Positions 13,796 to 17,397 of a stretch of 64,000 nt of DNA are shown here, in pieces. The notes below the pieces were generated by a model. That model made no database searches, was not told where the DNA came from, and saw only the letters and a program-made list of their open reading frames with translations. How positions within the stretch are numbered: the stretch's first letter is position 1; the number at the start of each line of letters is the position of its first letter. The stretch lies in sequence record MF327005. One strand, given 5' to 3'. Source of the stretch: Shigella phage Sf19. A program made the position numbers and the translations under genes.

Positions 13796-13822
13796 TAAAG
13801 AGTTCTTACGAGTATTCTTTAA
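13796..13822 (+). ncRNA. conserved hairpin with loop TTCTTACGAG (copy 1)
   Basis: aaagaGTTCTTACGAGtattcttt; second copy at 17373-17397 with compensatory stem change. Confidence 0.45.
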
Positions 13823-13826
13823 AGGA

Positions 13827-13904
13827 GCAGAAGACCAAATTCAGCAAGTCAATTTAATATTTCAAGCCAATTTAATTTTGAAAAATTTAAAACTTGGTCT
13901 GGTT
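13827..13904 (+). ncRNA. structured element C (same family as A/B)
   Basis: cagaagaccaaattcagcaagtcaa...cttggtctggt. Confidence 0.5.
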
Positions 13905-13915
13905 CCAACAAATTT

Positions 13916-14044
13916 ACAGAAGACCGTTTACAGCAAACAATAAACAATCTATTTCTCTGGTAAAGAAAAGGCGAAGGTTCGATTCCTTCACACGTTACGG
14001 CGTGTTGGTGTAATGGAAGCACTTAAGATAAATACGGTCTGGTA
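13916..14044 (+). ncRNA. structured element D: terminal stem of A-C family enclosing a permuted tRNA-like module (candidate Y-RNA-like ncRNA)
   Basis: cagaagaccgt...acggtctggt termini; internal GAAGG-TTCGATT-CCTTC T-arm, acacg-ttacgg-cgtgt closed acceptor-like stem, gtg-taatGGaag-cac D-arm-like hairpin. Confidence 0.55.
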
Positions 14045-14049
14045 ATCCT

Positions 14050-14181
14050 CTTTGCAGTGACTTATGGAGCTAACCAGTCGTCCCATGAGTGCCGAAGAGT
14101 CTCTTGAGCATGATTCTAGATTAGCTTATAAGAGATGACTCTACAAACCCTTTAGCAAGGTTTGCGTAGGTTACTGCAAAG
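14050..14181 (+). ncRNA. structured element E: 12 bp terminal stem enclosing ~110 nt with nested hairpins
   Basis: ctttgcagtgac ... gttactgcaaag (one G-U); inner gagtctctt/aagagatgactc stem. Confidence 0.45.
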
Positions 14182-14191
14182 ATGATTTAAT

Positions 14192-14264
14192 GGAAGTGTA
14201 GCAGAATGGTGATGCGGCAGACTTTTAATCTGACAGGCGATGGGTTCGAATCCCTCCACTTCTA
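14192..14264 (+). tRNA. tRNA-Lys (anticodon TTT)
   Basis: acceptor ggaagtg/cacttct, loop cttttaa; paralog of tRNA at 16061 with covarying anticodon-stem pair. Confidence 0.7.
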
Positions 14265-14346
14265 CCAAATTCGCCCTTAACTGAAGAACACCTGCGCGGC
14301 TGGAAACACCCACTCAATAGTTCTTCCCTAAAGGGCAACTTATTAT

Positions 14347-14420
14347 GGTTCAGTCGCAGATAAGGTAATGCAAGGGTTTCATAAGCCCTATGAATGTGGG
14401 TTCGATTCCCACCTGAACCT
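14347..14420 (+). tRNA. tRNA with CAT anticodon (Met or Ile-lysidine), second copy
   Basis: acceptor ggttcag/ctgaacc, loop ttcataa, T-arm gtggg-ttcgatt-cccac, CCA encoded. Confidence 0.7.
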
Positions 14421-14425
14421 CCAAT

Positions 14426-14498
14426 GCTGGTATAGTTAAGACGGTCATAACACTCGGCTGATAACCGAACATCGGTGGTTCGATTCCACCTACCAGTA
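14426..14498 (+). tRNA. tRNA-Ile (anticodon GAT)
   Basis: acceptor gctggta/taccagt, loop ctgataa, T-arm GGTTCGATTCC, CCA encoded. Confidence 0.75.
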
Positions 14499-14516
14499 CC
14501 AATTTCAATAAAGTTG

Positions 14517-14545
14517 TTGACATTAAGATGTGACCACTTTATAGT
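14517..14545 (+). promoter_or_regulatory. internal sigma70 consensus promoter (TTGACA-17-TATAGT) within tRNA cluster
   Basis: gTTGACAttaagatgtgaccacttTATAGTtacc. Confidence 0.6.
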
Positions 14546-14779
14546 TACCTTAGTTTTCGTTAGCGTAGCGTCTATTTTGCAAACTTAAAAATAAATGCAA
14601 ACGATAATGTTTTTCTGGCAGTAGCTTAATAGGCTAAACACCAGTGAGGTCTTCCAACCCCTCATCAAAGAATTTGGCGTACTAGCCCACGGTATGATTA
14701 ATAAAGTGGGCAACATTCTAAAGAGCATCCCTTAAGGGGTTTGGCTTAAATGCAATGAGTGCTCTTTAAAATGTTAATG

Positions 14780-14852
14780 CACCCTTAGTTCAATTGGATA
14801 GAGCAACGGTCTTCTAAACCGTGAGTTACAGGTTCAAGTCCTGTAGGGTGTG
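14780..14852 (+). tRNA. tRNA-Arg (anticodon TCT)
   Basis: acceptor gcaccct/agggtgt, anticodon arm acggt-cttctaa-accgt, T-arm GGTTCAAGTCC, CCA encoded. Confidence 0.8.
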
Positions 14853-14862
14853 CCAATTTAAT

Positions 14863-14980
14863 GGTCAAGACAACACTAGTAAGTCATCTTCGATACATGT
14901 TAAGAGATGAACGAAAGTCGGAAAGTTGCTGAAGGTTAGCTACCTTCGATAGTAAGTAGGTTCGACTCCTACCTTGGCTG
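14863..14980 (+). ncRNA. 118 nt tRNA-like element (perfect T-arm and acceptor-type terminal stem, CCA follows) lacking canonical D/anticodon arms
   Basis: ggtcaag...gtagg-ttcgact-cctac-cttggct-g-cca; interior ~85 nt does not fold as a type I or II tRNA by hand. Confidence 0.4.
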
Positions 14981-15130
14981 CCAAATAGTTAGCAGATTGC
15001 TTAGACGACCTTAACGGGTCTCCTGTAAGGAGGTGGTCTGTATCTCATGTTTTCCAGAACATGTAAATAATCTGAGAAGAAGCTTGACAGTGTTGAGATA
15101 ACAGGGTAAGCTTCGAAATATAGTATTAAT

Positions 15131-15198
15131 AGGGGTGAGCTAAGGCAGCAATAGAGTCTCCAAAATTCTTGATTAGAGTTCGAATCTCTACACCCCTG
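15131..15198 (+). tRNA. tRNA-Trp (anticodon CCA), short D-arm
   Basis: acceptor aggggtg/cacccct, loop ctccaaa, T-arm tagag-ttcgaat-ctcta. Confidence 0.6.
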
Positions 15199-15215
15199 CC
15201 AGAATAGGTACTTGT

Positions 15216-16142: not shown

Positions 16143-16215
16143 GGGGATGTAGTTTACATGGTTAAAACATAAGTTTTGCAAACTTAAGTACAGGGTTCAA
16201 TTCCCTGCTTCTCCA
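16143..16215 (+). tRNA. tRNA-Ala (anticodon TGC)
   Basis: loop tttgcaa; G3:U70 wobble pair in acceptor stem (Ala identity element); CCA encoded. Confidence 0.75.
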
Positions 16216-16224
16216 CCAATTAGT

Positions 16225-16296
16225 GCATCCATAGTTTAAATGGGAAAATTACAGTCTTCCAAACTGAGGTTGAGGGTTCGATTCCCTCTGGATGCT
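16225..16296 (+). tRNA. tRNA-Gly (anticodon TCC)
   Basis: perfect acceptor gcatcca/tggatgc, loop cttccaa, T-arm gaggg-ttcgatt-ccctc. Confidence 0.8.
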
Positions 16297-16305
16297 CCAA
16301 ATAAT

Positions 16306-16379
16306 GCTGCTTTCGTATAATTGGCTATTGCACATCCCTTGTAAGGATGGAGATGCAGGTTCGAGTCCTGTGAGCAGCA
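16306..16379 (+). tRNA. tRNA-Thr (anticodon TGT)
   Basis: anticodon arm catcc-cttgtaa-ggatg, T-arm gcagg-ttcgagt-cctgt, CCA encoded. Confidence 0.8.
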
Positions 16380-16385
16380 CCAATT

Positions 16386-16478
16386 TTGAGGTCAAGTGAA
16401 AGACCGCTTGAGTCAACTGAAGACCGTAACAAATTCCACGGAGTTGAGTTAGCGGCACAGCTTCAGACCTCTTCAAAG
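16386..16478 (+). ncRNA. structured non-tRNA spacer containing GAAGACCG motif
   Basis: gaggtc/gacctc and ctgaag/cttcag nested stems; ctgaagaccgtaacaa resembles 5' end of elements A-D. Confidence 0.35.
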
Positions 16479-16549
16479 CTCGCTTAGTTTATATGGTAAA
16501 GCCCCATCCTTACAAGTTGGTGAAGAAGGTTCAAGTCCTTCAGCGAGTA
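16478..16549 (+). tRNA. tRNA-Val (anticodon TAC)
   Basis: acceptor gctcgct/agcgagt, loop cttacaa, T-arm gaagg-ttcaagt-ccttc, CCA encoded. Confidence 0.7.
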
Positions 16550-16553
16550 CCAA

Positions 16554-16628
16554 GTTCCAGTATCCCAATTGGCAGAGGATGCAAGCTCAAACCTTGTATT
16601 AGTGACGGTTCGAATCCGTCTTGGAACA
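16554..16628 (+). tRNA. short (type-I-like) tRNA with Leu anticodon CAA
   Basis: acceptor gttccag/ttggaac, anticodon arm gcaag-ctcaaac-cttgt, A73, 75 nt. Confidence 0.6.
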
Positions 16629-16647
16629 CCAATTTTAGGAGATTCCT

Positions 16648-16860
16648 ATGAAGCCTTATGGTAGACATGGTAAAGTTGAAATTGCAAGTTGTGGCTGCTG
16701 TGCAGCACATGATGGTGAAGAAGATTATTACAAATGGCGTACAGACCATCGTAAACGCTTTCTCAGAAGAGATAAGAAGAGAGCTAGACAGGAATCTCAA
16801 AAGGATATTGCAGAATTAGTTCAAATGGATAGAGCAGCAACCTACGAAGTTGTTAGTTAG
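16648..16860 (+). CDS. small Cys-rich ORF whose 3' third overlaps tRNA-Arg
   Basis: 70 aa; strong AGGAG RBS 6 nt upstream of ATG; overlap with tRNA makes it doubtful. Confidence 0.25.
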   Translation: MKPYGRHGKVEIASCGCCAAHDGEEDYYKWRTDHRKRFLRRDKKRARQESQKDIAELVQMDRAATYEVVS

Positions 16861-16883
16861 GGGTTCGAATCCTCTATTCTGCA
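16810..16883 (+). tRNA. tRNA-Arg (anticodon ACG)
   Basis: acceptor gcagaat/attctgc, D-stem gttc/gagc, anticodon arm gcaac-ctacgaa-gttgt, CCA encoded. Confidence 0.75.
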
Positions 16884-16904
16884 CCAAATTTAATAGGTAA
16901 CATT

Positions 16905-17132
16905 ATGTATAAACTCATAGTTGAAAAACATAAAGATGACCACAAGATTGAAACAGGTAGATTTGGAGATACTTTCTTTATAGCGGTTGGTTGGCAATGT
17001 GACCCGTTAGAAGTTAGAAAGATTGTTTATAACTTTGCTGGATTAGAACTTAAGCAAGCTATCTTCGAAACATCACTACCTGAAAATAAGGATACTTGCA
17101 ATAACGCATATATTCTTTCAAGAGTTCGTTAG
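16905..17132 (+). CDS. hypothetical small protein between tRNAs
   Basis: 75 aa ORF; stop overlaps first nt of tRNA-Gln. Confidence 0.3.
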   Translation: MYKLIVEKHKDDHKIETGRFGDTFFIAVGWQCDPLEVRKIVYNFAGLELKQAIFETSLPENKDTCNNAYILSRVR

Positions 17133-17203
17133 GGGATTAGTTTACAAGGTTAAAACCTCGGTCTTTGAAATCGAAGAAGATGGTTCAATTCCATCATCCC
17201 CCG
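17131..17203 (+). tRNA. tRNA-Gln (anticodon TTG)
   Basis: loop ctttgaa; unpaired 1:72 (A:C) and G73 as expected for Gln identity; CCA encoded. Confidence 0.7.
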
Positions 17204-17208
17204 CCAAT

Positions 17209-17284
17209 GCTCCATTACTCCAATTGGCAGAGAGGCCAGATTTAAAATCTGTGTTATGTATCGGTTCGAATCCGATATGGAGTA
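17209..17284 (+). tRNA. short (type-I-like) tRNA with Leu anticodon TAA
   Basis: acceptor gctccat/atggagt, loop tttaaaa, T-arm atcgg-ttcgaat-ccgat, A73; D-arm paralogous to 15977 and 16554 tRNAs. Confidence 0.6.
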
Positions 17285-17293
17285 CCAAATATT

Positions 17294-17366
17294 AGCAGTA
17301 TAGCATAACTGGCAATGCTCCAGCCTCTGAAGCTGAAAGATTAAGGTTCAAATCCTTATACTGCTG
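17294..17366 (+). tRNA. tRNA-Gln (anticodon CTG)
   Basis: perfect acceptor agcagta/tactgct, loop ctctgaa, T-arm ttaaggttcaaatcctta, G73, CCA. Confidence 0.7.
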
Positions 17367-17372
17367 CCACTT

Positions 17373-17397
17373 CTAAGGGTTCTTACGAGAGTCCTTA
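17373..17397 (+). ncRNA. conserved hairpin with loop TTCTTACGAG (copy 2)
   Basis: taaggGTTCTTACGAGagtcctta; stem covaries with copy at 13796. Confidence 0.45.

Follow-up and report, generated by a model that had tools for sequence, protein, structure and literature searches.

The 64,000-nt stretch of Shigella phage Sf19 analysed here (sequence record MF327005; hereafter the window) is of the type found in Felix-O1-type myoviruses of the Ounavirinae and carries on its + strand a cluster of 25 tRNA genes (13036-18487, ARAGORN). Strong sigma-70-type promoters are predicted upstream of the cluster (12889 and 12979), with a third inside it (14517), and the closest records over the tRNA region are the Mooglevirus phages Shigella Sf17/Sf13 and Citrobacter Michonne/Moogle (92-97% identity). 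Our subject is a hairpin that occurs twice in this cluster, as H1 downstream of tRNA-Asp and as H2 between tRNA-Gln and tRNA-His (Table 1).

An initial annotation had quoted two 24-mers, AAAGAGTTCTTACGAGTATTCTTT and TAAGGGTTCTTACGAGAGTCCTTA, at 13796-13822 and 17373-17397; both were located, at 13797-13820 and 17374-17397 respectively. The 11-mer that they share, GTTCTTACGAG, was found exactly twice in the 64 kb (13802-13812 and 17379-17389), both times within the tRNA cluster and on the strand of the tRNA genes. Three further sites in the window match it with one mismatch, none with complementary flanks. The shared 11-mer had been taken for the loop of the hairpin. In the predicted fold most of it belongs to the helix: a C-G and a U-A pair form inside it, and a UACG tetraloop remains (RNAfold).

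From its foot upwards, H1 comprises a lower helix (4 bp), a C.A mismatch (13794/13823), a middle helix (9 bp), a U.U mismatch and two further pairs below the loop. Its RNAfold energy is -13.0 kcal/mol (z = -3.6), and none of 200 shuffled sequences folded as well. H2 occupies the entire 31-nt spacer between its two tRNA genes, and its outer CCAC/GUGG pairs draw on both neighbours, with the terminal CCA of tRNA-Gln on one side and the initial bases of tRNA-His on the other; the H2 core alone folds with -8.0 kcal/mol. Short spacers elsewhere in the cluster are nearly all 1-7 nt long and A/U-rich. The two hairpins share a gap-free register of 38 nt with 17 paired positions each. As had been claimed for their stems, they differ by compensatory changes: four pairs are altered on both sides, namely columns 8/31 (A-U in one, U-A in the other), 12/27 (A-U and G-C), 2/37 (U-A and C-G) and 3/36 (C-G and A-U). 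Both stems are A/U-rich, with 2-4 G-C pairs and energies of -8 to -13 kcal/mol.

Table 1. Coordinates of H1, H2 and the features next to them in the window
Feature	Positions	Strand	Basis
tRNA-Asp(GUC), upstream of H1	13690-13766	+	ARAGORN; Rfam 66 bits
Short GC-rich hairpin GGGCU-UCUU-AGCCC, directly 5' of H1	13776-13789	+	Fold; conservation in relatives
Hairpin H1, CUCC-C-UUAAAGAGU-U-CU(UACG)AG-U-AUUCUUUAA-A-GGAG	13790-13827	+	RNAfold; covariance model R1, 63.7 bits
UACG tetraloop of H1, UNCG class	13807-13810	+	RNAfold
Y-RNA-like element GCAGAAGACC...GGUCUGG, starting at the 3' foot of H1, outside the hairpin	13826-13904	+	Repeat family D11
tRNA-Gln(CUG), 3' CCA 4 nt before the H2 core	17294-17369	+	ARAGORN, Rfam
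Hairpin H2, core UAAGGGUUCU(UACG)AGAGUCCUUA at 17374-17397	17367-17404	+	RNAfold; covariance model R1, 61.6 bits
UACG tetraloop of H2	17384-17387	+	RNAfold
tRNA-His(GUG), 5' end 3 nt past the H2 core	17401-17477	+	ARAGORN, Rfam

Conservation, covariation and distribution

Relatives were represented by 30 IMG/VR loci, retrieved by way of the gene that precedes the tRNA cluster. Both copies are present, at the same two positions, in all Felixounavirus/Mooglevirus-type loci that extend this far (about 25 Ounavirinae relatives), and covariance model R1 gave two matches per locus, at 58-65 bits, and no others. Absence from relatives, or occurrence without a stem, had been named as what would count against the motif; it is kept in relatives, and always in its stem context. 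The few substitutions among these relatives keep pairing intact or improve it. Column 12/27 of H1 (13801/13816) is A-U, G.U or G-C; among other H1 variants, A34->G closes the C.A mismatch and GGAG->GGGG gives U.G, and H2 variants change G.U to A-U and U.G to U-A. Two substitutions in one H2 copy (L007) yield a perfect 17-bp helix. The only loop variant among the relatives is UGCG (L004/L202), a change at the N position of UNCG. Some relatives contain a third CTTACGAG (e.g. at position 15217 of L006), which has a 4-bp stem only and no model match and is treated as unrelated to the hairpin family.

Members outside the Ounavirinae were obtained by a stricter IMG/VR pattern scan followed by BLAST of GenBank phages; broad IMG/VR scans with 14 specified bases had returned mostly stemless chance matches in coding sequence. 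In all, 397 GenBank phage records contain a match. The 85-kb genome of Erwinia phage Omen (Kolesnikvirus) contains one copy only. It directly follows a GC hairpin, precedes tRNA-Leu(CAA) by 2 nt and lies about 200 nt past a promoter-like TTGACA...TAATCT (read by eye). In Kuravirus, the phiEco32/SU10-like podoviruses (about 140 records), the hairpin begins at the stop codon of a small open reading frame (ORF); three different ORFs stand upstream of it in different phages, and the DNA downstream is conserved. One unrelated 38-kb metagenomic contig (L158) shows a UUCG-capped terminator hairpin, the hairpin, 5 nt, and the ribosome-binding site (RBS) and ATG of the next gene. The Gamaleyavirus copies (N4-like G7C group) likewise begin at the upstream stop codon and have the foot and middle stem of the Kuravirus copies with the apex UUCU-GUU-AGAA. 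UACG caps all Ounavirinae, Kuravirus and L158 copies, apart from the UGCG variant above, and a GUU or GUC triloop takes its place in Gamaleyavirus. A run of 22 identical nucleotides, AAGGAUUCUUACGAGAGUCCUU, is common to Kuravirus and some Felixounavirus H2 copies, whose lower stems are unrelated.

The placement follows a consistent pattern. In all six contexts the hairpin has the orientation of the flanking genes, and it is always intergenic, starting 0-4 nt past the end of the upstream unit, be this a tRNA CCA, a stop codon or a GC-rich hairpin. A GC hairpin of this kind adjoins the element also in Omen, L158 and one Kuravirus variant. In most contexts the hairpin ends 0-5 nt before the next unit (a tRNA 5' end, a Y-like RNA or an RBS), the next gene in Kuravirus and Gamaleyavirus being about 300-360 nt downstream. 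Its position within the tRNA cluster varies between Ounavirinae genera. The hairpin had been presented as a feature of the tRNA cluster; this describes both copies in the window, but in Kuravirus and contig L158 the junctions are those of protein genes.

Across the family, the hairpin is an imperfect helix of about 38 nt with a 4-5-bp foot, an upper helix that starts AAG(G/A)...(C/U)CUU, and a UNCG cap. A set of 12 sequences had double-sided changes at 10 of the 17 pairs. In an alignment of 21 distinct sequences (A3) the number was 11 of 17, and 89% of cells were paired, as opposed to 41-60% in slid registers; the observed values were matched by none of 500 column shuffles. Single substitutions within the family run from A-U to G.U to G-C, from G.U to A-U, from U.G to U-A or C-G, and from C.A to C-G. 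One irregularity is nearly constant, a mismatch 12-13 bp below the loop at column 5/34 (6/33 in Kuravirus) that recurs in all groups. The apex is far less variable than the foot. Pairing in the sense strand (89% of cells) exceeded that of the reverse complement (82%), with an energy advantage for the sense strand of 4-8 kcal/mol in the Kuravirus, Gamaleyavirus and L158 copies and none in the Erwinia copy.

A repeated 11-mer is by itself unremarkable; H1 and H2 are non-random because they share a register, are conserved in relatives and belong to a family that covaries throughout, and a chance repeat is ruled out by this conservation and covariation. The covarying stem and conserved apex therefore indicate that, very probably, selection acts on the hairpin as an RNA structure of the sense transcript. 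Of the initial proposal of a conserved loop on a covarying stem, the stem, the conserved apex and the selection on RNA structure hold up; the 11-nt loop gives way to a tetraloop on an apical helix.

Several searches delimit the family. Model R1 did not match Yersinia phage P778. None of 5,426 E. coli genomes gave a match, and a host origin was rejected on this ground. Rfam 15 returned, for 13790-13827 and 17367-17404, no family beyond tRNA-type matches even at E <= 1-10, and no relevant match for the Kuravirus and Gamaleyavirus loci. The element is nowhere described in the literature consulted, which included the Felix O1 genome paper, the Sf14 tRNA paper and work on phiEco32, DUF2828 and transcriptomes.

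Two further arrangements were seen at the non-Ounavirinae loci. In Kuravirus SU10 (L227 2501-2570) the hairpin 3' arm GAUAGGA can pair instead with UCCUAUC 9 nt downstream, and the two folds are mutually exclusive. Gamaleyavirus St11Ph5 (L228 2501-2790) has two tandem modules, each a hairpin plus G(A/G)ACU..CCUAUCA; a tRNA-like gene comes next, and then about 1.4 kb with no annotated genes.

Possible roles of the hairpin

The initial annotation proposed a protein-binding or processing hairpin, a plausible class of explanation and the one that we favour. Within it, our tentative preference, held with somewhat less than even confidence, is that the hairpin serves as a cis-acting double-stranded processing or stability signal in polycistronic tRNA and mRNA precursors. 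Starting from a conserved, covarying, sense-strand hairpin at gene junctions, we infer the following course. H1 and H2 would fold in the sense transcript of a long, mostly untranslated precursor of tRNAs and noncoding RNAs and would offer a defined double-stranded entry site to an endonuclease, for which host RNase III is the likeliest candidate. Cleavage would take place close to the conserved mismatch, which lies roughly one helical turn below the loop, at the level of the cut in T7-type sites; with T7-like spacing, H2 would be cut one base before G-1 of tRNA-His. After cutting, or without it, the UNCG-capped stem would block 3'-exonucleases and protect the upstream product, and the stable stem would insulate the folding of adjacent tRNAs and RNAs. 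A host factor is the probable trans-acting partner, given that unrelated Enterobacterales phages with no obvious phage gene in common carry this element.

Five T7 early sites (R0.3, R0.5, R1, R1.1 and R1.3), extracted by the coordinates reportedly given by Dunn and Studier 1983, served for comparison. Four of them have a 9-12-bp upper stem starting AAGG/CCUU, and R1 starts CAGG/CCUG. The caps are GCAA (R0.3 and R1.1), UGCG (R1) and longer or 3-nt loops (R0.5 and R1.3). By inspection, the architecture of the hairpin is comparable, but its irregularity is a single mismatch and its foot is only 4-5 bp. The four AAGG/CCUU sites are, by these coordinates, reportedly cut 3 nt 3' of CCUU; applied to H2, this spacing leads to column 33/34, opposite the conserved mismatch.

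A number of observations weigh against a processing signal of this kind. RNase III spans about 22 bp, and the hairpin helix is shorter (PMC6212723). When the window was searched with a covariance model of the five T7 sites (R2), neither H1 nor H2 was among the matches at E <= 10, and the hairpin model R1 had no match at the T7 sites; homology to the T7 RNase III sites is thus rejected, as the reciprocal covariance models were negative and gave it no profile support. AAGG...CCUU stems are frequent among ordinary terminators in this AT-rich genome. A descriptor scan for them, in which the loop length was off by two, returned mainly terminators and carries no weight here. Conservation of the apical 14 nt goes well beyond what structure alone would demand, a hint that their sequence is recognised; in Gamaleyavirus, nonetheless, the apex is exchanged (UUCU-GUU-AGAA) and the stem retained. 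No perfect fit is obtained with either a "pure structure" or a "pure sequence" model.

If the apex GUUCU-UACG-AG(A/U) is what is recognised, the hairpin might engage a host (or shared phage) protein in a sequence-specific manner, as a binding site or a decoy, and have spread among coliphages by horizontal transfer. This is the main alternative, and an unlikely one in our view. In its favour, the apex varies far less than the foot across the family, and AAGGAUUCUUACGAGAGUCCUU is identical in Felixounavirus H2 variants and Kuravirus despite their unrelated lower stems; against it, the Gamaleyavirus hairpin persists without UACG. One candidate is TadA, the tRNA-Arg2 A34 deaminase, which would either edit the loop A (13808/17385) or be sponged by the hairpin. 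UUACGAG agrees with the TadA target YUACGAA at 6 of 7 positions, and the sole loop variant is an A->G change at the editable A. The target is recognised in a stem-loop, and 26% of natural editing sites are one base off the motif (PMC12255301). However, the last motif position is here changed from A to G, a mutation that abolished editing in hokB and trpD, and YUACGAA in a 7-nt loop on a stem of about 5 bp, as expected of a TadA substrate, is not what H1 and H2 form: the predicted fold closes UACG as a tetraloop on top of two pairs, in place of an anticodon-type loop, and re-registering to 7 nt breaks the stem (by inspection). Gamaleyavirus, moreover, lacks the motif. In a broader form of the idea, to which we likewise give a low probability, a horizontally transferred, sequence-specific RNA module would engage one host RNA-binding enzyme, as a processing tag or as an abundant decoy; the decoy could be released from highly transcribed tRNA or early regions, and it might imitate, say, the anticodon arm of a tRNA or some other RNase or deaminase substrate. 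Such a host-enzyme module, shared by unrelated lytic phages of Enterobacterales (Ounavirinae, Kuravirus, the unclassified contig L158 and, in diverged form, Gamaleyavirus), would represent a new class of phage-borne regulatory or anti-host RNA.

Recurrence in unrelated phage families would also be expected of a conserved linker that lies at, or promotes, recombination junctions between gene cassettes, similar to PeSL or REP/Correia elements and with little function at the RNA level. The surroundings are indeed plastic (a tRNA cluster with homing-endonuclease remnants, the small-ORF early region of SU10), three different Kuravirus ORFs adjoin the same hairpin upstream of conserved DNA, and the tRNA-cluster position differs between Ounavirinae genera. 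Compensatory changes with G.U intermediates, however, point to selection on RNA pairing beyond DNA identity; H1 and H2 stay at fixed positions in about 25 genomes, each genome has only 1-2 copies, and no transposase or endonuclease is consistently nearby, all of which makes a linker distinctly improbable. Still less probable is a role as ligand for the Ro60 homologue of the phage (gene at 11455-12870), in which the hairpin, as a minimal Y-RNA-like module with CGA(A/G), would recruit Ro60 and host exonucleases to the tRNA precursor. What suggests it is proximity: in Felixounavirus/Mooglevirus, and only there, H1 lies about 0.9 kb downstream of this gene, whose product has the Ro60 fold, on the same strand, and a Y-like element adjoins H1. 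In addition, the apex ACGAG is near the CGAA/GNCGAA motif of bacterial and phage Y RNAs (PMC4201824, PMC12135203), and a positionally equivalent hairpin of Yersinia phage P778 has AACGAAG. The bacterial motif, GNCGAAN0-1G or CGAA in a bulged stem formed by the RNA ends, was not found here, the apex being UACGAG(A/U)(G/A) in a closed tetraloop and helix. Omen has the canonical hairpin and no Ro60 homologue in its 85-kb genome (tblastn E > 1; annotation), P778 has the Ro60 gene and no R1 match, and Kuravirus and Gamaleyavirus carry the hairpin and are absent among the Ro60 tblastn matches listed. A dependence of the hairpin on Ro60 is ruled out, as its distribution does not track the Ro60 gene in Omen and P778. 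An intrinsic (Rho-independent) terminator or attenuator, finally, is very hard to credit. H2 is annotated "terminator" in the GenBank record of Citrobacter phage Michonne (KT001916), the hairpin is stable, and in L158 and H1 the U-rich tail of the preceding GC hairpin forms its 5' arm. But the hairpin is not an intrinsic terminator in form, because no U-tract follows any member (AAAUGUGG after H2, CAGAAGACC after H1, GGACUUCAG in Kuravirus, UAAUAGGAAG/UAAUAGG in L158); a terminator scan flags neither H1 nor H2, and H2 stands between tRNAs that need co-transcription with the downstream His-Phe genes, with no promoter predicted past it.

Three other candidates were rejected. A degenerate tRNA fragment or anticodon-arm mimic (loop CUUACGA, anticodon UAC) fails because the 7-nt-loop register leaves G.G or U.U mismatches, and ARAGORN and Rfam make no tRNA call at the hairpins. 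A hairpin sequestering a Shine-Dalgarno sequence (AAGGAG in the H1 3' arm) is excluded, as no start codon follows it and H2 has no such sequence. Mimicry of the sarcin-ricin loop was dropped: the shared UACGAGAG extends over 8 nt only, H1 has no match, and the fold differs.

A Ro60-like gene and other structured elements

The gene at 11455-12870 (+), just upstream of the tRNA cluster, encodes 471 aa with Pfam DUF2828 and DUF7788 and is classed by PHROG as "RNA-binding protein". Its AlphaFold2 model is confident, with a predicted local distance difference test (pLDDT) score of 89, and each of its 12 best PDB matches in Foldseek is a Ro60/Rsr protein, the Ro60 of Thermus phage phiLo among them; the product is thus predicted to have a Ro60 (TROVE ring + vWA) fold. 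The Ro60-like family is widespread in large phages, with the annotation "Ro-like RNA binding protein" in mycobacteriophages. In four distant homologues (31-40% identity; IMG/VR L024, L026, L029 and L030) tRNA genes come next on the same strand, which suggests a recurrent association of Ro60 with tRNA clusters in large phages.

Four Y-RNA-like elements follow on the + strand (about 13206-13277, 13369-13440, 13826-13904 and 13916-14046), of the form ACAGAAGACC-NN-UUNCAGCAA...GGUCUGGU with ends that pair. In the fourth, the closing stem encloses a V-like hairpin, a T arm that does not vary (GAAGG-UUCGAUU-CCUUC), an acceptor-like stem (closed, 7 bp, covarying in relatives) and a D arm. This layout is that of a YrlA-type Y RNA (PMC4201824), and the Rfam YrlA family gives no match at the element. 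Felixounavirus/Mooglevirus and Yersinia phage P778 have both the Y-like elements and the Ro60-fold gene, and the closing stems of the P778 copies covary; Erwinia phage Omen has neither elements nor gene. The Ro60-like gene and its Y-like elements may be more interesting than the hairpin itself.

The cluster contains other structured or non-tRNA segments. Weak tRNA-like Rfam matches that ARAGORN did not call lie, all on the + strand, at 13598-13678 (22.8 bits), where relatives carry tRNA-Tyr, at 13923-13997 (28.8 bits), which is the tRNA-like module of the YrlA-like element, and at 15131-15198 (32.6 bits). The region 14051-14181 (+) is structured, with the closing stem CUUUGCAGUGAC/GUUACUGCAAAG; its Felixounavirus counterpart has a compensatory version of this stem, CUUUGUAGAUAAG/CUUAUCUACAAAG, around an unrelated interior, and the region is probably, by this comparison, a further small RNA between the Y-like element and tRNA-Lys. 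The 79-nt spacer between tRNA-Lys and tRNA-Met (14268-14346, +) forms a long hairpin (-23 kcal/mol) whose core CUGCGCGGCUGGAAACACCCACUCAA recurs in a tRNA spacer of Yersinia phage P778 (L033 3899-3980), and the 95-nt Thr-Val spacer (16383-16477) is strongly structured (-30 kcal/mol). An ORF of 134 aa within the cluster (15216-15620, +) matches HNH and endonuclease VII families and is probably a homing-endonuclease gene or a remnant of one; the HNH genes of relatives occupy varying sites within the cluster.

Outside the cluster, three related A/U-rich hairpins lie on the - strand (46989-47027, 47106-47143 and 48375-48413; e.g. CCUUUUUAAAAGGUC...GGGUCUUUUAAUGAGG), intergenic and among minus-strand genes. 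At least two are preceded by a GC-rich hairpin, one of them UUCG-capped, and GGT-rich runs (GGTNNGGT...) come after each. With scores of 16-29 bits against model R1, they may be distant relatives or analogues of H1 and H2.

Significance and comparison with known systems

Large phage tRNA clusters give multi-kilobase, mostly untranslated precursor transcripts, and to our knowledge the cutting of such precursors into tRNAs and small RNAs is essentially unstudied outside T4. The hairpin provides a concrete, mutable handle on this question because it is conserved, covaries, coincides exactly with gene junctions and turns up again between protein genes in unrelated coliphages. It is a candidate for a new RNA family in Rfam-type annotation, being at present unannotated or mislabelled "terminator" in GenBank. 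What is unusual is the spread of one intercistronic structured RNA signal across unrelated phage families. Should its partner prove to be one particular host factor, the hairpin would exemplify the exchange of a small RNA module between phage families; even a mere RNase III site or exonuclease barrier would help to define operon punctuation in Felix-O1-type therapeutic phages.

The lambda-type nut boxB and HK022 put elements resemble the hairpin in having two copies per genome, a small size, a conserved apex and a covarying stem, and they act in cis in the nascent transcript, the mode proposed here. They differ in that the hairpin is three times longer, that no boxA-like partner or N-like protein was identified for it, and that, with the exception of Omen (about 200 nt), it does not lie just downstream of promoters. 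Y RNAs (YrlA, and Yrl1/2 of Thermus phage phiLo) share with it a nearby Ro60-fold gene, nearby Y-like elements and a CGA-type apex motif, but its distribution is independent of the Ro60 gene, and it has neither a large internal loop nor a tRNA-like module. PeSL elements, reportedly described by Arbiol et al. 2010 as mobile regulatory cassettes of T4-type phages, and REP and Correia elements, the latter RNase III substrates, are likewise short conserved stem-loops that border variable small genes, are common to several genomes and may mediate shuffling. The hairpin, in contrast, has no attached promoter, is limited to 1-2 copies per genome and keeps fixed positions in the Ounavirinae.

As a signal in polycistronic RNA, the hairpin would, by analogy, have its nearest functional counterparts in the RNase III signals of the T7 early region and in the UNCG-capped hairpins between T4 genes. 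The latter, C(UUCG)G or UNCG-capped and reportedly described by Tuerk et al. 1988, may affect RNA stability or processing. They too are unusually stable tetraloop hairpins between phage genes, and the UACG/UGCG loop belongs to the UNCG class; here, however, the closing pair is U-A and not C-G, the helix is much longer and A/U-rich, and a single homologous family extends across phage families, whereas the T4 hairpins represent a generic motif. The T7 signals are intercistronic hairpins with several similar copies per genome, a 9-12-bp upper stem, an irregularity below it (the T7 cut point), a lower stem and, in some cases, GNRA or UNCG caps. They act in a polycistronic phage transcript made by host RNA polymerase, which is the setting ascribed to H1 and H2. 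They differ from the hairpin in their larger asymmetric internal loop directly under AAGG/CCUU, their longer lower stems and their unrelated apex sequence.

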